From positions 1 to 64,000 of the forward strand of contig KZ538494.1 of NCBI GenBank assembly GCA_000934665.2: a stretch of DNA of 64,000 bases, given 5' to 3'. The notes beneath the pieces were generated by a model. The model was not told the DNA's origin. It saw only the letters and a list, made by a program, of their open reading frames with translations, and made no database searches. How positions within the stretch are numbered: the first letter of the stretch is position 1; the number at the start of each line of letters is the position of its first letter. Both the position numbers and the translations under genes were made by a program. Positions 5,261 through 54,864 of the stretch are shown piece after piece. This DNA is from Catajapyx aquilonaris. Its lineage: Eukaryota.

Positions 5261-8200
5261 CTGCAACACAAAATGCAAGTGATAAAGTGCTGCAATGTAG
5301 TTCATGTGAGCCATACGTACCTCCGTCTGGACCATGGCTGGACGCTGAGTGCGCAAAATGCGCACTGTCTGGAAGACGTCCACAACACCCTCGTACTGCA
5401 TGCGCTCCAGGACGATACTCAAGGTAATAAACACTCCGGTGCGACCTACTCCAGCACTAAGGAAGACATGAAAAAATGACGTCAGTAATCACGTAGTTGT
5501 AAATGAGGTAAAAAAAAATTAGTGACATATTGTAAGCCAACGTCATGTCTAAGGCTATGAAATGTTGGAAAACAAAATGTGTTAATGCAACATAATCTGA
5601 CCTGCAGTGCACTGTGATTGGCCCATCCTGCCCAAACTGCTCCTTGGTCTTGTGCACCTGTCCGATGAAGTCGATGAATCCTTCCCCAGACTTGGGAACC
5701 CCCTGCTCCGGCCAGTCGATAAACTGGAACTGCCTGACGGTGCGTGACTGTCCGTCCCTGGCATCGGTCACCTTGAACTCTCTCAGGATGTACTGGGGCA
5801 TGTTGTATTCAGCGATGGGCTCCACCACATAGCAGGCGTACCTGGCAGACCTCTCGCTGGGCCAGTACTGATGGCACTTCTCCCTCCCCAGCTCCTTCAG
5901 CTTGGTTAGCATCACCACAATAGTGGAATTGTGCTCCCACAGCATGCGCCAAAAGTCCTCTGTGGTTTCGGCCAGGGGACCTTGGGTGGCAATATATGCA
6001 TTGCGGTAACGGTAGCCATCGATGAAGCTGGCGTTGATGTAATCGCTGCCTTCCACTCCACGCAGCGGTGAGATGCACACTCGGGCAGACTCAAACGGAA
6101 GGATGTTTACTAGCCGGTTCTTAAACTTGTTGCATGGAAGGTTGGCACTCACAAAGCGGGTGGAGTCTGCCTTGATGTTGGCCAGCCTCTGCAGCGGTAT
6201 AGGTAATCATTGACAAGACTTCGTGATACTTTTTCGTATGTAAATGCCAATTGCATGCTGAATGTCACGGCAACATTTGGAAACTCATCACTAAATGTAG
6301 TGAACTGTTAGGAAAGTGCCTTTTGGTTTAAAAATTACTACTGTGCGCTAGTGTTGCCAAGACACTTTTCAATCATGCAGTGGAACATGAGCCTACTTGG
6401 AACAGTACAGGCCCAGAGTTGGCAATCTTGCAAATCCATCGATAGAATGTACAACAATGTACTTATGTAACAATGTTTAAAGAGGCTCTTGCAGGCATGA
6501 AAGTTGTGCAAGTACATTACACAAATGGTGCGCATTACATAAACTGCAGCTGTTGCAACCATTTGCTTAGCAGATAAAGTAATACCAAATGAACAGTGCA
6601 AGTATTTTTGCACCACTAATTTTCCACCAATGTGTAATGGACAAGAACATGTGCCACATGCAATAAAGGCATCCAATTGATATATGAATTTTAAAGCAAT
6701 GGCAGTCAGAAACTATTACGCAAAAGTGAGAGTGTGTTGCGCAAACATTGACGGCAATGCGAAAACGCAACATGTAATTTGTAATCAACTAGAGGCAAGG
6801 TCTTAATATGGACCGCTGGCCTCCCATTGCTTTAAAATGAGTAAGTGAATAAGGAAGAAAAACACAAACACAGAGACTAGGAGTGTGTAGTGTACCATAA
6901 ATACCTTGAACTCCAGCTCCATCCCCGTGATGTTCTCCCCCAGCTCGGTCTGCATCAGTTTCTGTATGTGGTTGTGCAGGTTACGAGCAGGGATTTCTGT
7001 GTGACCGCAAATTACAGCCTCAAGCAGCGCATCATGGATGAAGATGTACTGGTCCTCGGTCTGCACCATGTAGTTCCTCTGAGCTCGCAGGCAAGTAACA
7101 TGGCCGTATATGTCCACAGTTTTCTCGTGCTTGAGCCGCTCTAGCATCGAGTCGATAACAATGAAGCAGCCTGTGCGACCAACTCCTGCGCTGCAATGAA
7201 CCACCATGGGTCCAGCCTCCATTGGGTTCACATTCTTTACGCGGCGGAGGAACATCAGGAAAGGAGCCGGGTGGTCAGGGACACCATGGTCTGGCCAGGC
7301 CGTGAATTGGAACTGGCGGACTTCTCTCCTCTCTGGGTGACCAAGCTGAGAGGTAGCACAACATGAAGGTTAGTTGTCTTCATTATACCGCCTTATATCA
7401 TGAACAACAATTTACTTACCCTTTGCAGTTGGAATGTACGTATGCAGTACGTAGCCAGATCCTGAATGTCCGTAAGAGTGACGGACACAGGCCCATATGT
7501 CTCAGTCCCTCTGGATGGCCAGTACTGGTCACATTTGATCCTGGCCCTCTCCTCCAGGCGGGTCATCATGACCACGGTGGCACTTCTGAGCTCCCAACAC
7601 ATGCGCCAAAAGTCAGCAAAAGTGTCTGGAAGGGGCCCCTGGGTTGCCACGTACGCATTGTGCTTGCGGTAGCCATCGCAGAAGTTGGCATTGATGTAGT
7701 CGCTACCAGGAAGTCCCTCCACCGCCTGCAGCACCACACGAGAGTGGTCGTAAGCTATCACATTGGCGTATCTGTTCTTGCTCTTGTTCACGTCTAGGTT
7801 GGAGTTGTCCCATGTAAACTGCTGCCCTGGTTCAATACTCTGAAAAATTTATCACAGAACATCAGTTTAGTTTGATACTGGGGGCAGCTTTCCCATACTT
7901 GAAACAGACATCAAATGTTGAATCACATGCACATGGCTTACCTCATACTCTTGCGAGAAGAGCAAGTTATCACTTGACTTCAGTCGGTCGATGTGATTGG
8001 AGAGATCAGCCACTGGGATGGGTGGATGTGACATCATCCCTGGAGTCTGGAAGTTGAGCCTGCGCATCTCCACTGGATCCGACGCAGGGTGAAAAGCGGC
8101 TGCACTGGCAGTGCCTCCTCCTCCGAGAGTCCCTGTCCCTCCAACCCCTCCGCCACCCAGTCCTCCCAGTCCTCCCAACCCGCCTGCTCCAAGTCCTCCC

Positions 8201-11200
8201 AATCCGCCACCTCCTGCTCCACCCACACCTCCGTATTCCCCAGGAGCCATCAGGGGCTTGGTGACCGAAGCCTGCTCAGGAGTCTTGGGCATCTGGCGTC
8301 TTCTGCGTATTACCAGGATGAAGAAGACTAGGCAGCAAGTGACCATCACGGCAGCCACAACAGGACCTAGCACCCAGAGCATGCCAGGATCTTCCGCATT
8401 GCGATCTACCGCTACATCTGCACTCTCCACTGGCACATAAGGATTTGGGCGATGCGGAAGCTGGCCAGGTGGGATCTCACGCATGTCTAGAGACAACTGC
8501 TCAGAGAATGGGCTTGAAGTGTACAAATGCTGGAAAAATAAAGAAACACACAAAGAGGTCAAACTCTGAAGTCAGGTGGAGGTTGCATGACATCCCATCC
8601 TGGTGTGTGTGCATCAAAAATGCTTAATTCTCAAGGGAAGTACGTGGGAATCTGTCAGACGTAAGTGCCTTCAAATGGTTCACATATATTCCTACGATCC
8701 TGCATTGTATTCTATTTCATTACCTCATACAAATTGGCAATATGATCCTTTAGTGCTTTAATGTACGTTAATTTAATGTAACCAGGAACATTGATCACAG
8801 CAGACTTTACACTAATTTACTCCATCGACTAGGGATGCATAAACGGGTAGCAGAAGCCATGGATGGCACATCATACAACATCGACTTAGTTATTAATTGG
8901 TTCGAGTAGTGCACGGTGAGAATTGTTGACAAATAACACTGGATGCGCCCCACTTTCTTCATATTCTCTCCAACAAAAATTCGTATGGTAACAGGGGTAC
9001 TCTCTAGTATGCCAAGGGCAATGGTCCCACTGTGTTTACAACAGTTTACCATTAATATAATTAATCAAGATCAAGCTAGTCTTCATTGCTTCATTACTGC
9101 AACTAATTCAGTAATGCAAGTAAATGCTACATTTCTCTGGCTATTATTATAACAAAATGTACCCCATCCAACAACTGTCAGTCGCAAATCTTTAACAAAC
9201 ACTATTTCTTAACGACATGTCTCAATTCCATTTGCTTTTATGTCTAGGATGAGCTCCTCGACATCAGAACGCTGTCAAAATTATGCAGTACAAGACATGC
9301 CCGAAACCTACTGTACACGTATATCAGAAGAGGAAAATCAGTCTACAGCCAGGGACGCTTGTCATGCTTATGCCTGAGTGAGGGAATGCAAGTTTATGCA
9401 CTAGCGTAGGTGGGGCAGGGTCCATTACTACTTTCATATGGGGCGGAAACCAAAAATTGAAGCACATCCTGGCATTCACACTTAGCTTATTTACGGGACA
9501 CGATTCAATTAGTGCATGTCATGTAGGTGTAAGGTGTCTCAAGAATCAAGTCAGAGGGGAAAATTCTTCTCTCCATGCGCAGACAATGGATTAAGAAACA
9601 TTCTGTTCAAAAAACAGCGTATGTAAGTGGATAGTGATGCGTTAATGAGGTTGGAGTAGAGCAAGAGTAAGAGTAGACAGAGAGAGAGAGAGAGAGTATA
9701 GAAGAACGTGAAAGGTGCGTGGTGAGTGTACTTGCTTTGAAGGCTCCCACCTTCTGAGGCGTGTCAACCACAGCCCTCACAAAGATGCGGTATTTCTTCC
9801 CCTTCTCCAGACGACGGTTCTCAAAGCCCTCGAATGTCTTTGAGTCCCCCAAGGGGAACGTGTATGGGATGTTGCGCTGGAGGAATTTGGCCGCTATGTA
9901 CGGAGTGTTCTCATCCTCCTGCTTGTTGTTGCCATTCTTGTTGGCTATCAGCTGGTGGAGAAAAGACGGAGAATTTGATGTAGACCTGACATATTTTGCA
10001 CACTTATTAATGTAAATCGGCATGAGCATATGCGACATCATACCATTTTCAGTGCCCTATCACACTGTATGTAAAGGAAAGAGTAAATTAATTTATTTGG
10101 TAATGTAAAGTTAAGACTATGATGAAAAAAGTGGAAAATTACGCTTTCCATAAGATTAAATGGTGGCCATAAATGCAAAAGTGACACATACGTCATCAGT
10201 GAGGAACTGGTCCGGATTTTTGTGCAAGGTTCGCTTGTCTTCAGGAACCACGATGAGGTAGTAATGCGAGATTGGCCCATATTCCTCCGAAGCCTGTGGC
10301 AAGAAAACCACAATTTCTTCCGCATTCTGAACTCCAAAGAAGTCTGGCTTCACCATCGGTTGAGGAGCTTTTGCAAAAGAAGGTCATGTATTACAACAGG
10401 TGCAAACACTATTATGATGCAATTAGTTCTTACCGGCCATTTGAGTTGTGACTGATATCTTGGCAGGAGGTCGATAAGAGTGGTCCGTAGGAATGGCGCT
10501 TACGTTAACATTGTAGGTTGTGAAGGGAGAGAGTTCATTGATTGTGTGGGATTGGGAGTCAGGAGCGAGGAGGATGGTCCTTGGAGTAATCATCTGGGTT
10601 TGCGTAATTCCCTGAGAGTCCACAAACTCTTTGACAGCATCGAAAGAAATCTTATAGTTGACAGGATTCAGGCGGAGGGGAGGGCCCCAGGAAAGGGTCA
10701 TGCTGTGAGTGCTGACGTCATGAGCTCGCAGGTTAAGCGGCACATCTTCTGGCTTGACCTTGGCAGTCACACGTTCTGACAGGCGGCCCAGACCCTGAAG
10801 GTAAATATTTATGCAGAATTGAAAATCACTAATATTGTAACTATCATAAGGTCAAGTGCAAAGCACAGACCTATGATTATGTAATGAAAACACATGACAA
10901 TACACACCGACTTGGTCCTAGCAGCCACTGCGATGGCATACTGGGCGTTCTTCTCAAGATTAATGAGATCCGCTGATTCTGTGATGGGAACAGCCTTCTG
11001 CTGCCATTCGTCCATGTCCTCCACAGCCGTCATGGTGTAAAATATCTGGTAGCCAATGACCTTTCCACGGCTAGGCACTGTCTCCCACCAGACCTCCACA
11101 CTTGAATCAGACGTGGCCATGGCCCTCACATTCATTGGGGCACGGACAATTTCTCTCTCAGTGCGGAACTGGACATGCTCTCCATATGGGCCAGGGCCTT

Positions 11201-14200
11201 GGCGAGTATATGCTCGTACTTGAACAACATACTCAGTGTTCTCCTCCAAGTTGGAGAACACGGCCTTTAAAGTGGAAGGAGTTGGCTAGAGAATAGTTGC
11301 AAAATTTATACAATGAGGTAACAGCGTAAAAGTGTATGTGGGAACTCACCTTAGTGGAAGTGGTGTTATAATTTTGAGCAGCAGCATGATCAAGTCGCTT
11401 GTGGAACAGCACTTGGTAATTAGTCAGTTGGCCGTTTCGCATGTCAACCGGTGGAGGCTTCCACGTTATGGCCACAACATCAGCTGTTTGGAACTGGTAG
11501 GACACCTCGGAGGGTGGCCCAGATGGCACCCCTTCGGGGGTCTGGAAGAACTTGACTGCTTCCTGTCCAAAGCCAACGCTGTTCCCTCCAGCTACCCTGA
11601 ACTCGTACTCCAGGCCCCTTTCCAACTGGTCCAGCTTGTGGTGCTGCACTTTTCCTCCTTCCAGCACCAGCTCCTGCAGCTGGTCCCCACTAGGCGTGCG
11701 GGGACCCCAGCGCAGGCGATAGGCTGCCAGTTCACCAAAGGTCTGGGTCGGTCGGCTCCACTCCAGCTCCAGACTCACTTTAGAGTCAGTCTGAAGGACC
11801 CTGTTGGTGTGAAATGTTCGGTTATATTACGAAGCTCTTAACATACGGTCAAACATCGAGTAGGGTCACAATTAATATTCTCTTGCTCACAGTCACTGTT
11901 TTGTCACCAATGACAAAAATCCTTCTTTGACACGAACACTTTATGTCAAAAACGTACTTGTAATTGAGGCTTGGACGTGATGGGACACCACCAGGAGTCT
12001 TCACGTTGACAGGACTGCTGCGTGATCCATCTCCTTTTCGAGTCAGGGCAGCCACTTGCACTGCGTAACGGGTGTCTGGTTGTAGACCACTCACATTCAG
12101 CTCCTCCACATTGCCGTTAGGCACATTATAGTGAAGAGGATTGTTCAGAAGGTTGCCACCCTGCAAGAGATGAGTAATTCAACTTATTTCAAGTACTAAA
12201 GTTACTATCAAATATTCATTACACATCTGCATTGCACATTAGTCACTGGTACTTACAGTTGCCTATTTTCATACATTGTTGCAGCAATACACAGAACCCG
12301 AATGACAAATATGACTTTTAGTTCTTTGACCCAAAATAATAATGCATTGGCTCTGTTGAAACACAGATGTTCTGTTGTATTATGTAGGTTTTCCCTGGCC
12401 TTTGAAATATTGCATGTTGCAAAGCATTTCAAAATAATTAGTAGAATTTACCATAACAAGCTTGGCAGTTCAGGCGTGATATTAATTTTTCATTTGCCTA
12501 ATTTGAAATCAAGGCAATGAAAAGTAACTAACTAAACACCATCCTAAAGCCAATGAATCTTTAAGGTATAAAGTTTAACAACTTTATGATACATGGCCTT
12601 ACAGACTAATGCGGAAAATGGTAAATGCTGTACAAACCTCTTCACTAACTTCCTGAACATGAATCTGGTAGCCTCGTATTATCCCATTTCGGTCCTTCTC
12701 CACCGGCGGTTTCCACTGAACATGGATGGTAGTTGAGTTCATAGCCGTCACTTTCACTTCCTGAGGCTCTCCAGGGACTATAATGTATTGTAGTGGTGGG
12801 TGGAGTGGGTGGGCAGAAGGTGAGGGGAGAGGGTGGGGAGGACAAAGAGTAGTTTGTGAATGAGAGAAGAGAAAGAAGGCGGAGGGCAGGGAAGGGGGGA
12901 GGGCACAAATTTTTTGCTCAGATTTGCTGTTGTTACATGAAATATCAGTGGCAAGTCACCAGACACTGGTAAAACATGTACTCTCTGGCCGTCCCATGCA
13001 CAACCTCCTTGCGTTTCCCTCTGATTCCTCCTGCTCATGATGCTGAGACACATGGCATGCGCAGCTTTCACACATATCTCTTACATCCCATGCCAGAGTC
13101 AAAGTGTATTTTATTTTCAACGTTTTAGACCGGTTCTGAGTTGTGAATTTATGCCTCGAATAAGGCATGCTACACTCAAAATCATACAGAACAGAGCAAC
13201 TAAAATATGCCCAATACAAATTGAGTATCAAACTCCTGTCACCGATTACAATAGTTGAAACTTGAATGCTCTGCTTTCCATTCATCTCCATGAGCCCTGC
13301 TCATCAACTTCGCATTATGTAGTAGACATACATCTAGTACCTACAGTACAATATCCATCCCTTATTAAGTTTCCAGAGCCGTTATAATATCTTACATCAA
13401 ACTGTTGTACAACCGTGCCATTTGTGCGGAATAAAACTTTCTGTCAGATTACATTCTAATCATACCTGTCATGTTATTAATTGCTTCCTCACCATTATAG
13501 TGATTCACGAGGTGCAAATCTTACATGTGATCCAGACCAAGATGCAAATTAAAACATGTTATGGTATAATGTTCCTAAGTTTCTGATGGCACCGTGTTGC
13601 TTATTTAGCGCAATGCATTAGACCCTGCATAAATAATGTTATTCAAGATTGCACAGATATGACAATACTCACAATTGATAATGATTGTGGAGACGGAGTT
13701 AAAGCAAAATGCAATTCCCTTTCACCATCTACGAGTAAATCCTGCACCTACATTGACGTAACACTTTGACTTTGACAAAGGCTCATTCACACCCAATCAG
13801 GTGCCCTACATGATTTTTTAAAAAAGTGAAATGTACTGAGTTCCAGTACAAACTACCACTAACATTACTGCCTTACTGCAACCTAAACACAGTCTAAAGA
13901 GCAACACATATGAGCCAACTGAAGTGGTCTACACAAATGCTGGTTGCTTTTGCATGCCATTCTGGCTCCATTTTCCTGCAACTGTTGGGACACAAAGAGA
14001 AAATAATTAGCTACTACCCCTTAATATAAACCTGCAAAGAAAACTTTCTGTAAATGAAAACAAATATCGGAAGAAAAAACTACAGACACTCAGTATAACA
14101 TCTATCAGCCCATAATAATGTTACTTGGCAGCTCTAACCAATGCTGTATAATTATATATACTGCAGTGTATGTAAACCCACAATAAGATGCTGAAGGCAT

Positions 14201-15042
14201 GAAAGGGCACATAATTCACACCAATCACACAGCTAACGTACTCTAGTCAATTTACTCAAGAGGCAGAAGCCCGGCATCTCGACAAACCCACACACTGTAC
14301 GACGTTCATTACAGATGACTTTTTTCACTGGACTATGTATGTTGCACCGAGCACTGCAAGATGCTACAGAGGTGTGACCCAGAGGCAATAAGGAATGGGG
14401 GGAAGAGCCCCATGCAATACGCTGCCTTGGGAATCAGCAAACGCAATGGAGATTCTGCCTCTACAAACAGCAAAGACGGCCAGCCACAATGTAATCAATC
14501 CCTCGTCATCCATAGTATTCATTTTTTTTTTTTCATTAGCCACCAACTACGTATTACTCCTGAATTTGCTTTGCGCTGATTCTCTATATACACTATAAAA
14601 GTAACGGATAGATTACTTACTACAAGTAGTGACAGTTTCAATATCTAAACGTGATCTCATAATCACTCATTCCATTCGGTTATTCTATAGGAGAGCAACT
14701 CGAGAGAACTGAAAGAAGCTCTGGCAAACTCTAGGTAATACCAAATCTCTCCTCTGAAGACAGAATGAGAAATAGGTATAGAGAGTGAGAGAGACAGACA
14801 CAGGGCAATTAACGAATCAATCAATGATAGAGAATAAAAAACAAACATTTGAATACCAACACATGAGTGATTAGATTGTTACTTTAGCCGAGATTGTCTT
14901 GACAGGTTACAGCACACAGGCCCAAGTTGGCAAGGACTGCACTCGACTCCACTCGACAAAATTCAATCACAGTCAAGAGAGACAGAGCGAGATAGACAGA
15001 CAGGTAGTCAGAGAGAGATAGATAGAGATAGACAGAGTGAGA

Positions 15043-15074
<32 letters not shown>

Positions 15075-18000
15075 AAGAGAGAGCGAAAGATAATGAAATA
15101 AACAAGGTGAGGCAACGACATGGTAACCAATAAATCCACACTGAATCCTACAGAATGGTCGAGATGGGATCTATGCAGCTACTCTACAGATTGATACAGC
15201 AGTACAAGAGAATAAGATGCATTGGAAACAACGAACGGGACTGGTAAAACTGGCTCGGCTACAGCAACAGTTGGGAGATCGGGGAGTGTGATGAGAAAAG
15301 GAAATGCTACGGCAACAGTGAAAAATGCAACTCCACAGCATTCGCCAAGTATACTTACTGCGAACTGTTCAGAAGGACCCAAAGTTTTGTTAGTCGGGAA
15401 AAAAAGTGGAAAAAATGACAATGTGAGAGAACAGGGCTGCTCACGTCAGACAGGACTACACTACGAGTACACTAAGAGTGTTGGATATATTATATTTGAC
15501 ATATATCTGGCTGTTCCTGTGGTGTTGGTTGGTTGGTTGGTTGGTTTCTGGTTTATCGGGCGTGTGAGGCTGCATAGTGCTTTTTTTTATTTATTTTTAA
15601 TATCGAATATTTGAGTATTTTTAAAATTTTCTGTGCAATTTAATTATTATGAAAATCCCTTTCTGTATTGTGATGATGGGGCTTTATTTATTTTTTTCTT
15701 CTTCTGAATGTTCTGTCCTCTCCTCCCACTTTTCCCTCCCCCAACCCCACCCCCTTTCCCTGAAAGAAAGAAGACGAGTCTGTGTGCTGTAGCTTTTGGC
15801 CAACATGCATGCGCTCTCGTGGGCGCTCTCACATAACAGTATATCAAATCCGTATTTCTATGGAGGTGTACTGCAAGTGTCTTTGGCGCAAGTAGTAGTT
15901 GGCTGCCTTATTTGTTTAGTGCCCAGTGCAGGTGCTCAGGAGTAACGTGTGGTATTCAAATGTGCATGGTGCCTTGACACGTACGACTTCCTCCTCCTCC
16001 TCACGCAACCTTCTGTGGCTCGTTCTGACTGCTTGTTAACATTCCACCAACCATTAGGTTGCGCACTATACCTGAGCGAGGAGGAAGCGTCCTGGTGACA
16101 AAGCCATTGTGTGGTAGTAGCAATAGTAGTAGTAAGTAGTAATAAGTAGTAGTAATAGTCAAGTACTGTAGTGCTTGTAACAATCCCATAAATGGTGATA
16201 AAAACAAATTCATGACATCAAGACCCACAAGCGGTGCATAGTGCAGAATATTATAATATTCCAAAGCAATAAAGTGCAAGTGACACACTGTGGAATAGAA
16301 AAGCTGGTGGTAGTCTTTAGTGGTCATTATTTCACTCCCTGTGATGTAAAGTGAGAATGTAGGTGAATGCAAAAAAATCAACCTGGGTAGTTGATGTTGC
16401 TGCATCCACACTGTATCATCTGGAACACAACAAATTTTCTGTCGCCATCACAGTCAGTGGCATATGCTGGGTACTTCCTGGACACTCAAAAGCATCAAAG
16501 GTCGCGCTTCAATAGTCGACCAACAATATGCCAAAAAAAAAAAAAAAGTGACAGTGTCAGTGAGCAGGAAGTACCCAGAAAAATATCCTCTGGTGTGTAT
16601 GCACCCAAAGGGGCCATTTGCAGAGAGAAACCAAATGAGAGGGGGAGTTGTGCTTGTGTCATTGTGGTTATTCTGAGAGAATGCAACAAGCGGTGGTGGG
16701 AGAAGCATTTGGCTCCTATCTGGCGAGCAGATTTGAGTAAAGTGGCCTCATGATTTGGTGGTGGTGATGGTGGTGGTGGTGGTGGTGGTGGTGGCAGCGG
16801 TGGTAGTGGTAGTGGTAGTAGTACTGATTGTGGTCATGGCAGTGGTAGTTGTGGAGTGAGAATGCATTAGCGAGTGAGAAGAGACAGAGAGCAGAGAAGG
16901 AGAAGGATCGGGGGTAGTGTTAGTAGATAGTATTAGGGACAGATGTGTGGACACACGTTTCCCCAAGCCCAGAAAAACCAAGCATAGGAAATAGACTTAC
17001 AGCCCACAGTTTTTCCTCCCTTTTTTTAAAAAGTATACAAGCAAAACTTGGTCTTCAGCATCTCTGCATTTCATACTCATCGTCAGCCTTACACTCTTTG
17101 GGACCTGCTCAGGTACATGTGGGACTCACATACAATACTTTGAAACAACACTAGACAGTTCAAAATACATATTTTTGATCTAATAAAACTTTGCGTCTGG
17201 TAGCAACAACTCTTGTCTAACAAATGCAGCAATGGCATAACAGGTGGTTACACAGCAATATTAACAACAATTGTGAACACTCTTAGGAACACAGAACAAT
17301 ATTATATATATATATATCTGCCCATGACTTTGTCATCATGCCAAAATATAACGTGCATGTTGCATTGGCTTATAATCTAAGTACCACGAGGTAACCTCTT
17401 AACAATGTGAAGCTGCATTTAAAAATCAGTGGCTGTGATAAAAATACTCTCATCAGATGTTTCACAAAATACTACATTCAGTCCATCCGTGTGCAGAATT
17501 CATCCTTCTGCTCCAACTTGTGTAAAGTGGCAGTAGTTTTATAGTTTGTTACAGTTCCATCATCTAGTGATTACCTATCAATACTGCAATATTGGACCAT
17601 TCCAGAAATTGTCTCTCTTCATAAAATAAATGTGCCAAGTGCACGCTAACATAATACTGATTATTCCAGTCGACTAAGTGACATGAACTGGTAAAATTAT
17701 GTCATATGGCTGAACTTCCTTTGCTACGAATTTCATCTAAAATATAACTTGAAATATTTGGGGCAAGCTAAATACTGAACATTGCAAAAGCACATAAGAA
17801 TACTTGCTCCCTAGTTCAACCAGAACCTAAGGAAAAGAGATAACTTACAGAGCATTGCACTAACTTTTCATATATTGCGTAACTTCAGCTAATCGGTATC
17901 TTCACTAAAAAGACTTGTTTTTCTATGAACAAATATGATATTTCCAGACTTTAAGATAGAGGAAAGAAAATGATTTCCATGGGAATTGCTCTTTAAAATA

Positions 18001-21000
18001 AGGTTAATCTGACACTGGTCGTAACAGTATGAAATTACTTAGGTCCTGGTTCTCCTTGCAATGGCCTGATGCTAGCTACAAAACATTCTTACACGTCAAT
18101 TTGCCCTGACTAATAACAAGCACCTTCTGGATGACTAGGGGCAATGCTACAATCCTCATGATTTGGTCTGTTACAGATTCAGGTCAAGCGAGATCAACTA
18201 AGGTCAAACTAGGTAATAAATATAATCAGAAGTTACGCTAAAGAGTAGGTGCTCAGAAATTGTCAATCATGTGGCAGAATGCCAGACACAAATTATTACA
18301 CTTCACAAAACCGCGACAAATTATTCTCAAATTCAGTGGATGCATGATGACAAATTACACTCAAGCAATTATTGAATACAATGACTGACATCTTGCTAGA
18401 TCTTGCTTTTGGCATGATTTGGCAAGCATAAAAAAAGATTCACCAAGTGCAGATTGATAATTCCAATCCATGAAAGGTACAGTTCTGTTATTTGATATTC
18501 CTGTACAGAGATATGCACAATGTACATTAACATTTCTCCGATATTTTTGTACTACCCTTGTGAACACAGTATGATACAATTTATGGCTGGTTTGTGATTT
18601 AACATCTGAATGTGATTGGACAACAATGAGCTAGTGGCAGTAAATGAGACTTGGTGAATCCCAGAATAGGCAGAGTGTTACAATAACAAATTAAGCATTG
18701 GATACATGGCTCGAAGACAGTACAACAAAAACACAGCGAGATTTGTGGTCTTCTTTAGATGTGGGTATCTGATTTGCCCTTCCAGGAAGGTGGAGGACCT
18801 AGATATGGCGGAGGATGAGGAGGAGCAGTAGGCCCGTCATAGTAGTAGAAGGCAAAATCCTTCCGGCGAGGCTCTAGCAGTCGGGGCATGGGTGGGGCTC
18901 CTGAGTGGTGTGTAGTCGGGTCAGAGCGCCCTGGGAGGTCTTCAGTCATGAAGTAGCCAGAGCCACGCAGAGAATCAGCCAGGCCAAGGACATCATTCCT
19001 ATCCTTCAGGCGTAAGAAGGTAACAAGAACTGGACGCCTTTGCAGGGAGAATGCACGACGTGGACCAATCCTCACAGCTCTCTCTACCTCCAAGCGTGTC
19101 TGCAAGCCCAGGTGGTGATGAAGGAACACCTGGAAGGCGCTCTCCGTCAGGGCGGGATCCTCCTCCCCCTTGCTGCCTCCCCCGCTCTCCCCCTGCTCCT
19201 CCAGACCAAACAGGATCAAGTTGCGACGTCGTAACTGCAGGTCCATGTCAGCCAGGCGTGCCTCCGCTTCCTTCAGGCTGTCTCCAAGAGACACAGCCAG
19301 CTGGGAAGACTGTGTCTGCTGGTAGCGAGATATCTGAAGATCCTCCTTGAGCTGGTGCAGTTCCTCCGCCTGGATCTGTCCCCTCTCCTCCAGGCGCTCC
19401 ACCCGAGACATGGCCTCCTCCAGGAGCGCCCAAACTTCCCCTGCCTCTCCTCCTCCTCCTCCTCCTCCTCCAATCCCTACTGGTGCTGCTCCTCTTCCCA
19501 ATCCTTCCCCCCACATTGGACCAACTACTTCTCCCACTTCTCCTCTCCTTCCTCCTCCTCCAACTCCTCCATCCTTTACACGTTCCTCCTCTTCATCATC
19601 ATGACAACGCCCTGCCACCTTCCCCTGCGCCTCGTCTGGGCTGCTGCTGCAAGCACCCGCCTCTGCAAGGGAGCAGCAGCCCAAACTCAACGCTTGCTTC
19701 CCTCACTCTGCATTTGCCTCCACCTTCACGCCTTTCATCCCATACACATCATAACGTTTGCAATCCAATGACAAATAGCACTGACACTATTCACTGACTT
19801 TTAACAGGTCCAAATCAAGGCCCACTATAAGTCAAAACATTCCTTTGGAAAGAAAATTGATAGTAGCAAACTACACAATGAATTATCGTATCTAATCACT
19901 ATAATAATTAATTACAGTGTGGCTTTTTGCAAAGAGGCTACTAACTGGATGTCAGGTAACTACATAAGGCACTGCAGACCCATCATCTTATAAATCACTC
20001 CCTCATACCAATTCACACATTATCTTGCAATGATAGAACCCAGGCGGTGATTCAGGTGTTGTGTTGCCATGTCATGCATACAAAGTCTTCCACCTTGGAA
20101 TCACCCTACACATCACATATGCAACTTCACTTCAAAGACTGCTCTATTATCCCATGATATCTCCTGTGATTACTTGAGGGAGGGCGGTACGTTAGTGTGG
20201 GTCAGCAGTGCCTTATGTTGGCAACCAATTATTTCATTGCCACCTTGTTACAAAGTGATTTCAGATACTCTTTACTCAACTAGGATTATTGATGGCTCTC
20301 AGCAATTGGTTTAATTATTATAGTGCACACAAAAACTCTGCAAAAAATCCAAGTGCACTGGGTGCATCATCACTGTCACTCTCATAATCATGCCATTGCT
20401 TCATGCACAGTGACCTCATAAGCTTTCACTCTTATCAAGTAACTTCATATTTACAGTATGTGATACTGACGTGCATGATTCCTTACTGTGGTCTTCGCAA
20501 AAATGATGTAACTTCCAAAGTATGGCTTTTGACTGACCAAAAAACAATGTAACAATAAAGTCAAAGAAGACCTGAGATCACTACTGGGACATTGCAATCC
20601 CAATACTTTGACTTACCAATGGCCATGTTTACCTCTGACCATTACACAGCATTTGAACCTGAATGAGTCATTTTGTCAATGCTATTTGTACATAACTGAA
20701 TACAGGCTACTAGAATTAGGTGATTAAATATTTGCATTACTTCTTTGGTGGAAATGGCGATAACTCACATCTGAACATTAGCTGAAGTGGCTTGCACATC
20801 AAAGAAGAGTCACCCACACAGTCACCCGTCACATGTGCAGACTATATCTACTGTATCCACTATAAGCCAAGTCCTCAGCTCAAAATTCCTAACTGCTTGA
20901 GCCTGCATGCGGCATGACTATATCATTGCAGCTTACATACCCCACTGTAAGCAGACCAGTCAAATCTCGCTGTAAGGAGTCGGCAATGTCTTTTTCTAGT

Positions 21001-24000
21001 CAAATTCAACTGTTGATCACAAACCTATTTTTCACCACCTGCTTTGCCATCTCTGCAGTGATAATAAATCATGAGTGGAAGATCACTTACTCTCACAAAG
21101 CCATATTTAACAAATAAGAGCTGGACTCATTATCCATGTGTTCCCTATGATGTGCAGTGACAGATTATATAGGCTTTTCCACAGGTATTATTCCTAGCTA
21201 AAATTCTGACTGCACTTACATTACAACGGTTAATAATTGACTTATGCTTATCTGCAGTTACTTTCATCTTACAATGTCATATGACCCTGTGTTACATCTC
21301 ATAGCCTCAACTACAAAGCGCTATAAAAATGAGAAGATAACAAATACCAGAACAGCTCACTGCAAAATTGGTCATAGTGGAAAATCATTTCTCGCATTAA
21401 TTACTACACAATGTCAATCCACGATCATGGAAATAATGATATGGAACAACACCATGAAACAGAGGACAAATTGTCAAAATGACCTGTAACTAATCATAAA
21501 GTGTTATAATTTATTGTACAGAAACTTCAGCAAGGTGCCAATAAAGAAGATTGGGATTGAACACAGTGTACACTATCATAAAAATGAGTTCTGGTTTTCT
21601 CTTGCTAGTCTTAATTCTAATTGACGCAACGTGTCAGAGCAACATAAAGAAACACAATCCGTGACTCCCTTGGGGAGAATAGACTTGAAATTAGTCATAT
21701 TTGGAGTAAACAAAAAGAAAACAGATGTTAATTGAAGTTTCATAAAAAGCAACAGTTGGACCTGATAAAATTAATGTTAATGTAGTTGATTCACACTGAC
21801 CCAACTGTTTCCTCTTTGTTTCTACCTACACACAGCTAGAAACTTGCACCAAAAGGAAGTGGCAAATGGACGCTCATAACTACTGAGCACTGACTTATGG
21901 ATGGTGATTATGATGTAACTAGTAATTGCACAAAATATTTTTCTAATAGCAGACCAATTTGCACATTTATAAATTGATCAACTCTAGCTAACACTTGTAT
22001 TTGAATAATATGAAATACATCCATGTAGCATGTGCTACGATTTCAATACTTGCACCTGAGGAAAGGCTGACACTGTGCCATGAAGTTGTTATTAGAGAGA
22101 ATAGTTTTTCAAGAACTATGCAGATTGTTATGAAACTTTGAAGGACACCTGTTCCCCATGCACAGAGTATGTTCCAGTCAGAATTGTGGCCAGGGAAAGA
22201 AAAAGCACAGAAAGTGAAGTGTGATCTTCCACTGCAAGTGCAGCTGAGAAAATAAAGAGTCCCAGTGTATCAAAAGAAAGAGAGTCCCAATGGAGAGACA
22301 AGGTGGTAGAGTAACGCTCTCCTTCTGATTGTAGGACGGTGTGGATCAGCAAGGACGAGGGATACTTTAGGATCGTGGATTTGGAGAAAGAAAAGGTACT
22401 ATTGCAAAACCATTACCAATTTCCTGCACAACCCACATGCAGTGAGACATGTTTACTGATGATATAATTATGTGGTAGTCCTTTAAATCTGTATTTACAA
22501 AAAGTCAAAAAATTTAAATATGCTGCCTCAAAAAAACAGGATCAAAAACTCCATTTTATGACAATTATTACTCTACTGTCAAGAGCAGCCAGCAGATAAC
22601 TATACAGCATGGAGGTATATTTTCAAGTGCTAATAATATAATTTGTTATAAAATAATATTACTTGTGGACAATTTATAAAAGTTCTTAGATCTGCCTCAT
22701 TGTACACTAAAACATGAAATGCAATTACAAAATATGTACAAAAAATTCAAAGACTAATTTTAAATTCTGGAAGCATGTAGGCCTTGACAGCACTCATCAA
22801 GGTTAAGAGAAAATTTACAGAAGCATGTTAAAATTTATCTGAACTGAATGGTCACTTATAATAAATTTGTCATGAATCATACACAGTATTGGATTCTCAT
22901 GGAGCTTATTATGACTAGCTCCTATTGACTTGTCCTTCCTTAGATGAGGGTTACACCAAACATCTTGTACGCTCCACACTGACTTTCTGGCATCCAAACA
23001 TAGTTTTATTATTATTATTATTATTATATTTTTTAAAGCCAATTTCATCATAATGGAGAGGGTGGTATTTTCTGCAGCGAAGTATCTTTCAAGAGTCCAT
23101 GAGATTTCAACCTTATGTAACATATTTAGCACCCATACTTTCTCAAAAAAAGTAGCTTGCAGCTAATTAGTTTCAATACTGATGAAGTACATTTTTCTCA
23201 GTATAAAATTACTATGCTGGTATCTGACACAACATTCCAATTTCACTGGAGTTCAACAATACTAACATATACTTTCAGTAATATTTCAGTTTCAGTAAAA
23301 ACTGCATGTGAAATGCAGCAAAAATCTTTAAAACTTTCTGAAATTTCCAATCTCAATGTCACTGAAGAAATTCACAGAAATGTTACATTTCCCCACTCAG
23401 GTGCAGCATGAGCCTAATTACTGCAGTATATGTGATGTATACTCATGTGATTAAAAGTATTGCCATTGGCAGTAAAAAATCCATTTTGTTTCACCTGAAT
23501 AAGTTTAGGTTATGACAACCACTAACTGCTGACTGAACATCTTGACACACCAACGGCAATGGGTTACCACAGAATGGTCATGGTTCAGGGTGTGATGGTT
23601 GAATTTATGGGTAAGGTTTTGAGGTTGAGGTGAACAAGGTTAAGGCATTATAGGGTGTAGGGGGGGAAGGAAGGAGAGATAGATACATACCGTCCTCGTC
23701 GGTAGTGACGACGACTGGGTAGCTGGCAGGCCCATCCCCAACACTGGTGCCCGCCAGCACCCAGACTCGATACTGGGTCCAGCGCTTGAGTTGGTCCACC
23801 AGGAAATGGCGTGCATCAGGATTGGAGATAGTGATAGTGGCAGCCTCAGAATCTGAGCGCGAGCTCTCCACATAATGCAGCTTGTAGTAGCGAATGTCCC
23901 CGTTCTGTTGTTCAGCGGGCGGAGGGAGCCAGCGCACAAGGATGGACGTGGAGTCCTCAGCCTCTGCGCTCACGTTCTGGGGGGGGGCTCCTGGGACTGT

Positions 24001-27000
24001 GTGGCGAGCGGGACATGTGCGCATCTTTAATGTGCTGCCTCTTAATGTGGTGGTGGTGGTGGTGGTTAGCAGTGGTAAATGATGGTTGTGGGTGTGTGGT
24101 GGGGTAGTAATGGTAGCAGTGGTGACAGTGACAGTGGTAGTGGTAGTGGTGGTGGTGGTGGTGGTGGGAGTTTATGTTTTAGTGGCTGGCTGGCTGGCTT
24201 AGGTGTGGTAGGTGTCTGGGCTATATTACATTTTTAAAAATATATATATTTTTTCAGGGCTTGGTCTTGGGGGAAGGATTGAGTAGTGGAAGGTCACCTA
24301 TAACTGCAATGCTATAATATTTATAGTTTTTCTTAAGTAAAATCATTCAATGCAAAGTTGAAAAGTCCAAAATAACAAACACTTTCACCTCAGACTAGAT
24401 GATTGTGATAGAGCACAAAAATTCTGTCAATGCAGTTGGGTCTTGTTAATGTGCGTACAAATTATGTTGGGAATATTTCCTTTAGGGCTGGTTGCACCAC
24501 AGTAAGGTACAGCGTCAGGTGTAGGTCGGGCATTATTATTAATTGTTCGAAATAACGAAAATATAATTAATAACAAATGTAGACCCACACCTTAAGCCCT
24601 ACCTTGAGCTGAGGCAACATATAAATTCCTACGAGTGCCGACGTGTTCTAGGGTCACAGATATAATATTTCACAAAAGTAGAATCAAAATTGCAAACAAA
24701 TGCCTGGAATTGAAAATTATTAACACATTTTCTAATCTATATTTTCTGAATTTTGAATCTCTTTTAAAAAATATTATGCATTGCAGAAAGGTTTTTAACC
24801 AGGTTTATAAGTATCCACTCATGATGGTACATTTCCATACTCATTTTAGTAATACCAAGAGATCATGTTAGGTAATGTTAAATTTTAAAATACTATTCGT
24901 TAAAATATGACTCACTACAACAAGTATGTATGTAAAAAACATGACACATCCATAATTCATTTAAATGCAAATTAAGGAACTAATATCTTTATGCAAAGAG
25001 AGGTTACTGATTACTTTGAACCTGTGTTCAAACAAGTGGAGTATGGTTATCCAAACTTTGAAAAACATATGCAAATACTTTCTACGCTTTAGCTAATGGA
25101 ACAGGGGAGTAGGGAAGATGCACAAGGAAAAAAAGGGTAGGGAGCATGGGAAGCAGTACGATGCCCTGTGTTACTGAAATGAGTCTGTCTGCTTTAGTGT
25201 GGATCCAGCTAGCACACTAAGGGAACATTTTTGGGAACATTTTCCAGTGAAGGTTAAAACACTCATAAAATAATAATAATAACAACAATAATAATTATGC
25301 AGCAATCCTCAAAAAAATCATCAACAAAACAAATATGTGAGCATTCATTCTCATTTTCTTTTTTTAAAAAATTTAAAAAAAGACCAAAGAGTGAGCAAGC
25401 CAATAAAATAATTTTGACCAATCGCTTCCCAGTTTAGGCTCTGAAAAATGCATTGGTGCGTTACGTGCCAGCCTGAAACTGCTCAGAGGAGAGTGGCCAA
25501 AAAATGTGCATCAGAGCATATTGGAAACCCCAAACTGTTCCCACTCGGAATTTCAAGTGAAAAGCATGCACTTGGGGATGCTCCAATATGCCCACTGGTA
25601 AACCTATTAAATCTAAGTGAGGTGGGATAACTCTTCTTAACTTGGAAGTGGACAGAGTGAATCAAAGAAGAGTTAAAGTGGTGTACATCACAACTGCAGC
25701 TGTGCAAAACAGTGGTGAGACAGGACTGGCTGGTGCATCAATATCATCACCATCATTATGGGATAAATCAAAATTACATGCAGGTATATATTGTAAAAAA
25801 AAATAATGAACATCCAGTCAGTCAGGTGGGAGCTGGGGGTCAGAGTAGTGAGAGACAGTGATATCTATATATTCTTTCCGTCTCTTGCTATAATTTTTTT
25901 GATGCATTTTTTTGTTTCCTTTTACTCATTATATGTGATGTCCTGATGCTGTTCAGTTTTTTGTGCCAATTGATTTTATATCCATTTTTCTTAGTCACCG
26001 GGGACCAGGTTGGAGACATGATTTGTTTCGCTATGTAGTCTGCAATTGTGGTGTTAGTGTCCCTGTATTGTATTGACTCGATGGATCTGCTGCTATGGTA
26101 GTCAATAGGCGACCAGGGCAAGAGCCGTGTTGTGTTCACATCAATGGGGCCAGGGGAGTTGGTTGGTGGGCAAAGGTCAATAGTAGTCCAATTAGAACAG
26201 TGACCTTTCTTGGCATGTCAACAATTCTTATAACACCAAGTGTTAGGAATGACAAAAGAATTCTTTAACTACTTGAATATCAATCCTGCAGTGAAAATCT
26301 TTAGACTTGATCCTTCATAATATTTGGGAAAATATTGTTCCAAAATTATGGCTAGTTAGATTTTTAAAAACTTGCCATGCCATTCATATTAAGTGACATT
26401 TTAGATAGCTTCACATACACAGATGTCATAGGTTATGCATGACCAAAATTTATCAGTAGCTGGAGTACAGTCGAAGAAGGCTAGTTTTCACTAATGATTC
26501 CTCTATGTGACTATCAACAGTGTAGACTGCTCAAGGAAAAGGGTCACCCTGTACTATCCCGGATCCCTGGTAAGCTCCCCTGGCCCCTCCTAGAACCACC
26601 ACGAGGGGCACCTACCTTCATTTTCTCACCTGTTCCAGCTGATACGAGAGAGGACCTCTGTCCATCCATCCATCCATTCTCCCTCCCTCCCACCCGCACT
26701 TCCACATCCTCACCATTCCCCCCTTCCCATTACCTTCCCTCAAGTATTCCTACTCCAGAAGACTCAACCCTTATGTCCCTCTAGGAGGGAGCAGTGCACA
26801 AGGGGACTCCCCCAGAAGCCTTACCGTACTGCTCGGTTCTGACGGGGATGGGTGGAGTGGTGGCACCTTCTCCTCTCCGCGACTTTGCTGCCAGCCATAT
26901 GAAGTACAAGGTGTTTGGATACAAGCCGGGCAAACTGTAGCTCTCTCCCAGTGAAATACTTCGATGGTGCTTCTCCTAAAGAGGGAGCCATATTTAGTGT

Positions 27001-30000: not shown

Positions 30001-32416
30001 AACCGGACCAGGGGCACGAGGAACAACCCAGTGCTTATCTTGCATCCAGTGTGTCAGACACACACAAAACTCTGGCAATCAAACGAGTAGTAGTAGTATG
30101 GGGTGCACCACGTTCCTTGCACAAACCAATCCTAACAAGTACAAAATAACTTACTCGCACCTCCAAATGCAGGATCGGCTAGAAAAGACAAGGAGAAAAC
30201 AACGGATATTGGTTATACTTGGTTAAAGCTAGTCAGGATTTGGCTTACTGTACATGGTTGAAGGAATCTATATTATTTTACTTGTATGTACCCACCAGTA
30301 CTTTTGCACTGTAGTAGCTTACAGTACTTGACAACTTCATTGGTGGTTACAACCACACTTCCCACACTACGTTAGACATGCTTTCGCGAGAAATGCATAG
30401 TAATCTTGTATAGTAAGCTTGATATTAGTAGTAAACACGTCAGCCAGTAATTCACTTTTTCACGAGTGTCGCACCTGAAGGGCTTGCAGTTGATTAATGC
30501 AAACGCATATTTTTAGCCAGTAACCATATTGAAATATTAATAGGAGGAAAGAGCAGTTTTGAACCGCCTGGAGACTAGCTTCATTTCATAACATTTGTTC
30601 AGGTATTCCTGCAAACGCGGTCATTACGTGCAAATGGTATTAACAAGGTTCCTTAGAGGCAGATATGTGTTTTTCCTGCCTCGCTACACTGCTGCAGCTT
30701 CTCTTTGTTCTGCATAAAAAAGGGCCTGCATTGCCTGGATTACAAAATTTATTTATTAGCCACGGGCTAGGTGAAAAGCAACGCAAAAAAAAAAGTTTAT
30801 AGTATTGAGCAGGGCACTTGCGCTGTGTGCGAAAGATTAATCGGCATGTTTCGAAGCTCATTAACTAATTATTTTAATTTAGTGCCTCCCAAAGCACAAC
30901 GCATACTCTACTTAATTACTGGGCTGGAGAGTTAATCCCGTTCGCGTATAAAACTCGCCTTTACGCAGATGCCCTTGCAGCTACGGTAATTTTATCCCAT
31001 ACGGACCAGAAGGCATAGCCCGGATTTTTCCCCTCCCCCTCAACGTAACGCTCATATTTCCCTCCCTTTCTCCTGGCTGATGTGGACTACTCCGTTATAC
31101 GCTGGGTAACATTCCAAAAACTGCGACGCATATCGAGTCTCATGTTTTCCCATAAAAAAAACAATACAAAAATTCCCGAGATTCCACGTCCCTAGAGCTA
31201 GTCTTTTGTGATGTTCGGTGCGAAAATTTATCATCACATTAAAAAAAAAACAGCAGCTCTGTTTGGCGTAGTCATATTACAGTATATTGTGACCATTGTA
31301 ACGAAATGGTCACAAAATAGCTCTAACTTTGTGGTGGCAATGTGTGCCACAACTGTGTAAGTCTATGCTTGTATCCTGCATCAGCTTTCTACTACGATAT
31401 TCAATTAACTAATTGCATTTAGAGCGGCAGTCTCGTACCTTTCGAAATGTTCGTTGAAGCATTAGCGGTACCGCCTTGGCGTGCCTTTATGATAATGGAT
31501 GAGAATCAGATTTCGCAAGATGCGTATAGGTGCAAACCAAGTAGTTAGTTCATGTGTATATGGCATACGTTGCCATTCCAACATTCGCCAGTGCGGCATC
31601 GCAAGAAAGTGATTACTTTTGGCGTAGTTAGTAAAGCACTAATTTTAATGTATGCTGGTCCAGCATGCATATTAGGCAAGCCATATTGCCAGAGTCGTTT
31701 CTCAGATCTGGCATTATTCGTCAAGCGCACCACATTCCGTATGTACTGTACAGAGAAACTCGAAAAATTCCAACTTCCATCTTGAATAGGATACTTGAGC
31801 AGTACCCTGCATTGCACTCTTCGATTTAGATTACCATACGAGCATATGAACAGCCTCCCCATTTTTTTTTGCATGGCTTGCACGCTTAGTTCCCAGGACA
31901 TAATGAACAATTATGACACAAAACCCAATTACTTAGTTCTGAGTTTTTTTTCTCTCTCCCCTACGCTTAACGAGGCCTGTAAAAATCGAGCTCCTAAAAC
32001 GTATTGCATAAGCCGAGATTACTCACTGGTTTCTCCGGTGGTGATGTAGGCTGGCGTGCTGGGAGGTCCACGTCCGATCTTGTTGACGGCAATCACGTAG
32101 TACTCATACTCTGTGTACGGGTTCAGGCCTCGGACGGTGTAGTACATGGTGATGATGCCACTGATCTCGGAGTATTCCTGTGTAACGCAGGTTGTAATGG
32201 CGTTTAAATTGTCAGTTTCTCGGAAGGAATCCGGTAAATTGTAGGTACGTACCTGGTTCGCATACTTGGGTTTGTACTGAATAACATAGTAGGAAATGTC
32301 GTCTGCACCGATGTCGTAAGACCAAGCCAGACGAACGGATGTAGCCGTGACATCGGAAATGCGCACGTTGGTCGGTGGCCGTGGCAGTGCTGTTCAAATA
32401 TTATATAAATGTTGGC

Positions 32417-44112: not shown

Positions 44113-44514
44113 CTGCAAAGAATTCACACATTATTCATTACTAACCCTGCATATAAACCATATCAGCAATGTACGCTATTACCTAAAAATTAATTAATTC
44201 TCGGAAGGATTTAAAGCCATTTTCAAATGCATTTTTTTGCTTTTTTGTTTCAAAGCTTAGATTACATTCAGGTTTATACCTCCATTCTTCCACCCTGAGC
44301 GATATTAGTTACTGCATCAGGTGAGCCACGAAGTAATAACTGAAAATTGTGGTCACAGTCCCCTGTGGCACAGTTACGTGATCGGCATGTTGAGAGGTCT
44401 CCGGGTGTACTAACTTGCTGCTTCATCTAAAATACGACCCACCATTTTATACCCCTCCCGGATCTATATAGCCTCATTTTGAAATGTTTACGACACAACT
44501 CTGGAAAGTACCGC

Positions 44515-44589
<75 letters not shown>
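44515..44589. repeat. (AAT)n microsatellite, ~25 units
   Basis: Directly visible. Confidence 0.95.
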
Positions 44590-44590
<1 letters not shown>

Positions 44591-44887
44591 TTCAGCTAAA
44601 ATTCAGGCTATTAATTTACAAGCTGAACTTTCTCCTTTCATATAGTTTGGAGTTGCCGCGTACAGAAGTGAGCTTTCCTACATGCAAAGTACAACGTTTC
44701 ACATGACTTCGCAATTTATGGCTACATGAATGGAAAGCAAAAAACCAGGGCCCGGAGGGGGTGAAATGATTCCGCGAGCAAAAAGCCCTAGTTTGAAAGC
44801 CCGAATAAGGTTTCGCTCATCAATAGAAATGAAAACTTAAAGAATATTAGCCTGCTCTTCCTTTATGGGCCTCCCCGATCAAGAGCC

Positions 44888-44926
<39 letters not shown>

Positions 44927-44988
44927 NNNNNNNNNNNNNNNNNNNNNNNNNNNNNNNNNNNNNNNNNNNNNNNNNNNNNNNNNNNNNN
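44927..44988. other. Assembly gap (62 N) inside a poly-C tract
   Basis: N run flanked by C homopolymers. Confidence 0.99.
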
Positions 44989-53900: not shown

Positions 53901-54864
53901 GTGAGATTTCAAGGCTGGGTCGCTAGAAACTGCCAAATGTGCGCATGTGGAGACCCATAAGAGCGTATACAGGCTGGCAAAGTGTCTAACTCCCCGTGTA
54001 TCTCCAGGGAAACGCCGGTGGTCGTAGGAGGGGGTAATCGAGAAGACTGAGGAAAGGTAGATCCTTGGGAGATGAGAGACGGTCGTGAATGCAGCGGCGT
54101 CGGAGGCGTCCATCATTGGCAAAGTGGGGGGCAGGTGGGAGACGATGCGGAGGAGTTTGTCTGTGCCAACCCAGAAGAAGCCTTTTGGAGGTCCTCTCTC
54201 GTCAATTGAGCCGGCTCACGTATCTCAGGTGTGCACGGCGATTAAAAAGACAGAAGAGCCATTTGCGCCACCTACAGCGCGGGGGGGACAAAATTATGCG
54301 GAAGGGACGACATGCAATATTCAAATGCTCCCGGGCCCCTTATTGCACACGTTCGCCTTTCCGCAATCTTTGCTCCGGCCCCGCGCATTATACACTAGCA
54401 CTAGCACTACTATCATTATACGCCTGCCTGCTGCAGCCCCGGCTCGTCTTAAACAACCAAGACTTTACGCTTTTATTCTGTCTGCTTTCCTCCGCTCTAA
54501 GTGCTAATTACGCTCAGACAACGACGACGACAAAATACTCGGCCGCCATCTCCAAAGCGAGGGACACGCCATGTATACGTGAATATTTGATGCCGCATTG
54601 CTAACAGCTACCGCTATTTATTACGGTATTATCGCAAATAACTTTGGCCGCGCTAATTGAAACGGCGCGTAAAAGTTGCATTGCCAATTGGCATGCCCAT
54701 CGTAAAATTCTCCGCAGTTCATCCATATCCACTTTACACGTGATGGTTAATGGGGTTTACACATATTTTCCGCCCACAGACTGGAGTCATATTTCATCCT
54801 GTAAGTCAGGCTTCATTGTGAACAGGCATGCGATGCGGGTTGCTCTGAACAGTCAGGATAATTA

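Follow-up and report, generated by a model that had tools for sequence, protein, structure and literature searches.

In the vertebrate type IIa receptor protein tyrosine phosphatases (RPTPs), the mini-exons meA to meD vary the ectodomain in Ig2 (meA), between Ig2 and Ig3 (meB) and inside FN5 (meC), and the protein near D1 (meD) (PMC8711739). In FN5, inclusion of a small exon abolishes binding to laminin-nidogen (PMC2133008), and a new mouse microexon lies near FN8 and the membrane (PMC10883964). Here we consider a stretch of 64,000 nucleotides (nt) from Catajapyx aquilonaris (contig KZ538494.1, positions 1 to 64,000; the window), whose minus strand encodes a Lar-type receptor tyrosine phosphatase. 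In the intron that separates its FN4 and FN5 exons, an earlier note had described four short segments, candidates 1 to 4, as a combinatorial cluster of microexons. We conclude instead, with a probability of about two in three, that this intron carries one functional cassette microexon, candidate 1 (15359-15364), the counterpart of a 6-9-nt exon of insects and crustaceans, and that candidates 2 to 4 are not separate in-frame microexons. Candidate 1 is probably real, and its sequence and relatives make it very likely to be spliced as drawn.

The closest described exons are those of Drosophila Lar, for which Table S2 of PMC8797185 gives the 9-nt DmeEX0004911, the cassette DmeEX0004914 (291/297 nt) and the 24-nt DmeEX0004913. 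We assign DmeEX0004914 to the FN4 cassette by its length and position, and DmeEX0004913 to the FN1-FN2 hinge by reference to fly isoforms. The 24-nt exon is pan-neuronal and eMIC-dependent (PMC8797185); it is also the only Lar exon given in the available supplements of PMC8042270, the 9-nt exon not being among them. DmeEX0004911 (VastDB; chr2L:19724935-19724943) is classed as LowPSI, with a maximum percent spliced in (PSI) below 10 in all tissue groups, and it is absent from the available Lar rows of the eMIC sheet (PMC8797185). Our literature search, which left most subscription journals and bioRxiv supplements uncovered, found no paper on an FN4-FN5 exon.

Inserts at the FN4-FN5 hinge and the evidence for candidate 1

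The first line of evidence comes from 355 stored proteins in which the FN4-FN5 junction could be parsed, a collection without decapods in which isoforms and related species are not independent and at most 15 members are listed per cluster. The two domains are joined directly in 273 of these proteins and through an insert in the other 82. Inserts, mostly of two or three residues, were seen in 21 of the 27 pancrustacean clusters and in none of the three chelicerate clusters; the former count includes the clusters of GMYM (Bactrocera) and VRWPTV (Amphibalanus), which from their first and last residues look like products of a shifted donor or acceptor and not like exons, and that of the ambiguous Daphnia insert DSVIV. 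Most inserts correspond to 6-9 nt (range 6-33 nt), and the exon ends in A, converting the FN5 valine to methionine or isoleucine, as in VKM of Culex, AVKM of Apis, AIKM of butterflies, EKKM of Drosophila and AVYI of Lepeophtheirus. Longer inserts are found in whitefly, psyllid and the cockroaches and termites. An insert is also present in 4 of 69 isoforms that skip FN4, showing that the exon can be joined from the FN3 donor. These isoforms support the view that microexon splicing at the FN4-FN5 hinge is real across Pancrustacea, with candidate 1 as its putative counterpart here: within the FN4-FN5 intron it is in frame, belongs to the 6-9-nt class and has a final A that is followed by GTAAGT.

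The same proteins bear on the remainder of the proposed cluster. The arthropod Lar alignment suggested as a check by the earlier note returned inserts at the predicted junction; none of the 82 resembles candidates 2 to 4. Nor do any of them contain cysteine, which speaks against the idea that the hinge gains an unpaired Cys. Among the members listed for the 30 clusters, no species has two insert types; the five types of the aculeate cluster each come from a different species. An arthropod microexon at this hinge survives from the original proposal in the form of a single conserved element; a four-exon combinatorial code, with one insert type per species, is unsupported.

The second line of evidence comes from the DNA of other species. 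A metagenome scan yielded 21 loci, of which two (L012 and L013) contain the whole intron and a third (L022) its first 1.07 kb; the other 18 have too little intron or no matching exon. Locus L013, which is copepod-like and groups with Lepeophtheirus, contains a 9-nt exon reading AVYI, the insert of the Lepeophtheirus RefSeq isoforms, with a tandem acceptor that gives a 6-nt form. When the 17-nt core of this exon, splice sites included, was searched against both strands of the 64 kb, it had one match, which coincides with candidate 1 and differs at two of the 17 nt; 0.02 matches were expected from shuffles. The AVYI of L022 is specified with synonymous changes; the exon of L012 is 6 nt long and ends in CA, followed by GTAAGT. 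In each locus, no AG-free zone of the available intron is longer than the one that precedes the element (167, 145 and 182 nt), and a 70-nt zone precedes candidate 1, whose best local alignment falls on the microexon element in each of the three introns.

In the L012 intron, a second 3-nt segment flanked by GTAAGT (9877-9879) and a separate acceptor at 11064, with CTAAC and a 73-nt AG-free zone, both lie upstream of the 6-nt exon and may point to additional elements in some lineages. A look-alike of the candidate 3 acceptor near 11064 was rejected, its order relative to the microexon being wrong and the match not being the best alignment.

Splice signals by themselves are less informative. All four AG..GT segments described earlier are present on the minus strand, they are stop-free in all 16 combinations with the full-inclusion reading as given, and the signals listed for them are there as well: CTAAC and GTAAGT for candidate 1, the long pyrimidine tract of candidate 2 and the GTAAGT of candidate 3. 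The same intron, however, contains 549 stop-free AG..GT segments of up to 51 nt whose length is a multiple of three, of which 372 are no longer than 27 nt and 24 have a strong donor, so that the combination of AG..GT, length and open frame means little. By splice score, candidates 1, 2, 3 and 4 rank 1, 30, 53 and 42 among the 549. The scoring matrices rest on a small set of sites, the 22 donors and 23 acceptors of the gene itself, and antisense controls reach the top score; for these reasons the splice score proves not even candidate 1, and it was rejected as proof. As a set the four segments are not beyond chance, and it is conservation that lifts candidate 1 alone above it. Three of the chance segments with a strong donor lie within 18755-19690 of this intron.

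Several observations weigh against the single-microexon reading. Five of the 27 pancrustacean clusters lack an insert and one could not be parsed, and automated gene models frequently lack exons of no more than 6 nt. Only the L013 alignment approaches significance alone, the score of candidate 1 being reached in 9 of 200 null runs for that intron, 183 of 200 for L012 and 132 of 200 for L022. The top splice score (6.0, candidate 1) is reached 0-4 times per chunk of the antisense control, which comprised six chunks, five of 10.9 kb and one shorter. The acceptor at 14753, considered below, is unusually strong and is left unexplained by one microexon. The sole sequencing run found for the organism (X1) consists of short intron pieces without joints, which identifies it as genomic DNA. 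Finally, three homologue searches (57 matches; the best 120 of 618; the best 120 of 1090) named no decapod protein among the matches listed, and with no decapod or other close relative there, room is left for lineage-specific extra exons.

In the most skeptical account, all four segments are chance matches and this species uses the direct junction alone, its exon having been lost or become vestigial. The clusters without an insert are in line with such a loss, as is a fly exon included at such low levels in every tissue group (PMC8797185). Against it stand the copepod-like exon, whose unique match falls in the right intron and on the right strand, and the expectation of only 0.007 6-nt exons of the form V-[K/R/Y] with YAG and a strong donor in the intron, a pattern chosen after the homologues had been seen. 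We regard the account as improbable.

The host gene and the position of the segments

The Lar-type gene runs from Ig2 (~44,100) to the end of D2 (~5,200), and its Ig2-to-D2 order is collinear with that of insect Lar by tblastn. Twenty-three exons joined at GT/AG sites, among them the donor at 23691 and acceptor at 12777 that the earlier note had correctly taken as the flanks of the hinge, give one open frame of 1958 amino acids with a single terminal stop. The product has the Ig domains, FN3 array, transmembrane segment and tandem PTP domains of Lar and the type IIa RPTPs. Upstream of Ig2, positions 44120-64000 of the window yielded no Ig1 exon, and the preceding intron must accordingly exceed 19.8 kb, or else Ig1 lies on another contig.

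The exon at 23996-23691 has as its best PDB match the first domain of 6X3A, a structure of RPTPdelta FN4-FN6 (PMC9140312), so the FN4-FN5 numbering used earlier holds. FN4 and FN5 abut directly in 6X3A, with 0 extra residues between them; the FN4-FN6 unit is extended, and a KGD loop of FN5 sits at the FN4-FN5 interface (PMC9140312). The KGD motif is also present in FN5 of the window. In an FN4 tree the window falls outside insects and chelicerates, among non-insect pancrustaceans and without a supported sister group, and the 29 representatives include no closer relative (best identity 59%). A DNA search of the organism's own genome returned the window itself and CT-repeat matches only. The coordinates of the hinge features are given in Table 1.

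Table 1. Features of the FN4-FN5 hinge region in window coordinates
Feature	Position	Strand	Description
FN4 exon (upstream flank)	23691..23996	-	306 nt, phase 1-1; tblastn, open spliced frame, PDB match
FN4-FN5 intron	12778..23690	-	10,913 nt, phase 1, GT..AG
3' splice region of candidate 1	15365..15436	-	70-nt AG-free zone, T-rich tract, CTAAC branch motif at -29
Candidate 1	15359..15364	-	6 nt; would change hinge V to V-R-I, net +2 residues
Acceptor region of candidate 2	14754..14881	-	126-nt AG-free zone, CTAAT at -121, CT-rich tract
Candidate 2	14742..14753	-	12 nt
Possible 133-nt exon	14621..14753	-	candidate 2 acceptor to candidate 3 donor; stop after 7 codons
Candidate 3	14621..14644	-	24 nt; GTAAGT donor, purine-rich acceptor
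Candidate 4	12960..12965	-	6 nt
First FN5 exon (downstream flank)	12638..12777	-	tblastn, open spliced frame

Candidates 2 to 4 and the acceptor at 14753

The three remaining segments differ widely in quality. Candidate 4, with 43% pyrimidines, an AG-free zone of 13 nt and no CTAAY, is most likely a chance match, and the odds that it is spliced as drawn are slight. Candidate 3, whose acceptor has 38% pyrimidines and an AG-free zone of 9 nt, is unlikely as a 24-nt microexon, to a degree that makes its use as drawn quite improbable. The earlier note had itself doubted these two, and rightly, both being without pyrimidine tract, branch motif and AG-free zone. When candidates 2 to 4 were aligned with the three distant crustacean-like introns, none of the matches was significant, their scores being reached by 18-199 of 200 null runs. 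The model of four independent microexons, with up to 16 hinge variants of which one carries an unpaired Cys, draws on the open frame of every combination and on a site that is a true microexon site; against the 372 equally eligible segments of the intron, the missing signals of candidates 3 and 4, the 41-49 antisense segments per full 10.9-kb chunk that equal or exceed the score of candidate 3, and the 82 inserts devoid of Cys, we consider it highly improbable.

Candidate 2 is another matter. Its acceptor at 14753, where 84% of -40..-4 are pyrimidines, outscores every other of the intron's 697 AGs, and no AG with a zone of at least 100 nt and a score of at least 4 occurs in 78.6 kb of control sequence. 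Its donor (GT at 14741) ranks 329 of 703 GTs with a score of -5.0, under all 22 constitutive donors (minimum 3.0), and matches the consensus at 4 of 9 positions versus 5-8 for those donors. As a 12-nt microexon candidate 2 is thus doubtful, and more probably than not it is not spliced as drawn. A 42-nt ant intron match over it (L017, E 0.32) was rejected, being not significant and without a donor.

Candidates 2 and 3 may instead mark the start and end of a single poison or truncating exon; the acceptor could also be a product of microsatellite decay. An exon running from 14753 to the GTAAGT at 14620, which alone among the 22 GTs within 320 nt of that acceptor has a positive donor score, would be 133 nt long and would stop the frame early, serving as a poison exon or yielding a secreted Ig1-FN4 ectodomain; it is compatible with candidate 1 as a microexon. 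Besides the rank of the acceptor, the 97-nt spacer between candidates 2 and 3, with its weak donor and no pyrimidine tract, fits such an exon, and rat LAR, for which FN4 deletions are also described, offers a precedent in a stop-bearing retained intron that predicts a secreted isoform (PMC2120354). No homologue of the 133-nt exon was found in L012, L013 or L022, however, the nearest AATAAA lies 1.6 kb downstream at 13115, and the CT-rich tract may reflect decay of a microsatellite, a CT repeat being present at 14976-15083 and such repeats being common in the genome. We advance this exon only tentatively, the odds being clearly against it.

Alternatively, the hinge could harbor two real microexons of 6 and 12 nt, the second a neuron-specific exon of the eMIC/Srrm234 type with a weak donor, giving four hinge variants in this lineage. 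The long AG-free zone, the CTAAT and the TCTC-rich tract of candidate 2 fit the fly eMIC code, in which weak 5' splice sites are included, and insect eMIC exons turn over fast, so that a lack of homologues is weak evidence (PMC8797185). The score of its donor, the nearest TGC at -54 rather than close to the AG, and the lack of a similar insert among the 82 or of any species with two insert types make this alternative unlikely. That this lineage has added some second regulated element beside the ancient hinge microexon, be it the 12-nt neuron-specific microexon or the 133-nt stop-bearing exon, is a real prospect, if one we would not bet on. If the 12-nt microexon is true, a small combinatorial code would operate at this hinge in addition to FN4 skipping; if the 133-nt exon is true, Lar would be switched to a secreted Ig1-FN4 ectodomain or to decay.

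Isoform diversity, function and comparison with known systems

The FN4 exon is probably itself a cassette exon, for annotated isoforms that lack it occur in insects, barnacle, Daphnia, spiders, ticks and Limulus. In the FN1-FN2 intron, a 24-nt exon at 30155-30178 on the minus strand, with a GTAAGT donor, encodes DPAFGGA and matches inserts of the xDxxxGG[AST]K type seen in insects, Daphnia and ticks. Shorter versions would arise through an internal AG (6 nt, resembling the short GAK inserts) or through an internal donor (18 nt). By our assignment the 24-nt exon is the counterpart of fly DmeEX0004913, and it is the better candidate for a neuronal microexon in this gene. The isoform diversity that relatives support would thus comprise candidate 1, FN4 skipping and the FN1-FN2 exon (30178-30155), not a four-exon cluster.

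Elsewhere in the gene, insect isoforms vary by a few residues at a meA-like position in Ig2, and the 581-nt Ig2 intron of the window (43349-43929, minus strand) contains no good microexon candidate (best score -2.1). In-frame segments of 21 nt in the Ig2-Ig3 intron (41087-41107, minus strand; score 10.8) and of 9 nt in the FN3-FN4 intron (26630-26638, minus strand; score 7.7) have no matching homologue inserts, and antisense controls score up to 9.7. A cytoplasmic juxtamembrane Gly-rich insertion of ~44 residues (~8070-8230, minus strand) is absent from the two insect Lar proteins aligned.

Evidence on candidate 1 comprises its sequence and splice signals, conservation and the annotated isoforms of other species; we infer that it is usually skipped and would be included in a minority of transcripts or cells, possibly in a cell-type-restricted manner. 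Recognition of the exon may depend on the long AG-free zone, the branch motif and the GTAAGT donor. Including it would add two residues where FN4 and FN5 abut, and would most likely loosen or rotate the FN4/FN5 interface, which in RPTPdelta buries the KGD loop of FN5. By analogy with meB, an altered interface might tune the shape of the ectodomain or its access to ligands. Candidate 1 would combine with skipping of the FN4 exon and with the separate FN1-FN2 microexon, and not with its three neighbors. The site falls in the FN4-FN6 region, which is reported to be sufficient to rescue a Dlar follicle phenotype (PMC9140312).

How does candidate 1 compare with its described relatives? DmeEX0004911 lies in the same gene and, by its coordinates, in the same intron, flanked by the FN4 cassette and the exon after it; it is likewise in frame, is reachable from the FN3 or FN4 donor and matches the EKKM insert of Drosophila isoforms. 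It differs in being 9 rather than 6 nt long, in its residues, and in that its inclusion has been measured in the fly. The VKM (Culex), AVKM (Apis) and AVYI (Lepeophtheirus) isoforms share the junction and the terminal A, the Culex insert having in addition the same 6-nt size and a Val followed by a basic residue; these hinge isoforms are automated gene models without a described function, of 6-33 nt and of one type per species.

The comparison with the eMIC/Srrm234 neuronal microexons of Drosophila is mixed. Candidate 1 resembles them as a very short exon with an AG-free zone and a CUAAY branch motif, two features found in candidates 1 (70 nt, CTAAC) and 2 (126 nt, CTAAT) and not in candidates 3 and 4. 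A UGC near the 3' splice site, which is an enrichment in the fly eMIC set and not an absolute rule, is lacking in both: none occurs within 150 nt upstream of candidate 1, and the nearest to candidate 2 is at -54. Candidate 1 differs further in its strong donor and in a fly counterpart outside the eMIC set, whose Lar member is the 24-nt FN1-FN2 exon. That counterpart is classed as LowPSI and not as neural or eMIC-dependent, which leaves a synaptic splice code at this hinge unsupported. Fly neuronal microexons are reported to be poorly conserved even among holometabolous insects (PMC8797185). The persistence of a 6-9-nt exon at one hinge of Lar between copepods and flies, rare though its inclusion is in bulk fly samples, suggests that it has kept a function in a small population of cells. 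As the exon is already present in VastDB and in RefSeq models, the gain is modest.

The meA-meD exons of vertebrate PTPRF, PTPRS and PTPRD are also short in-frame inserts in a type IIa RPTP ectodomain, and meB lengthens an interdomain linker. None of them lies at the FN4-FN5 junction, as the earlier note had recognized in placing its cluster at a different hinge, so candidate 1 at most works like them and is not one of them. Set beside these systems, the intron probably contains one real microexon of a catalogued kind, together with one unexplained strong acceptor and two probable chance matches.

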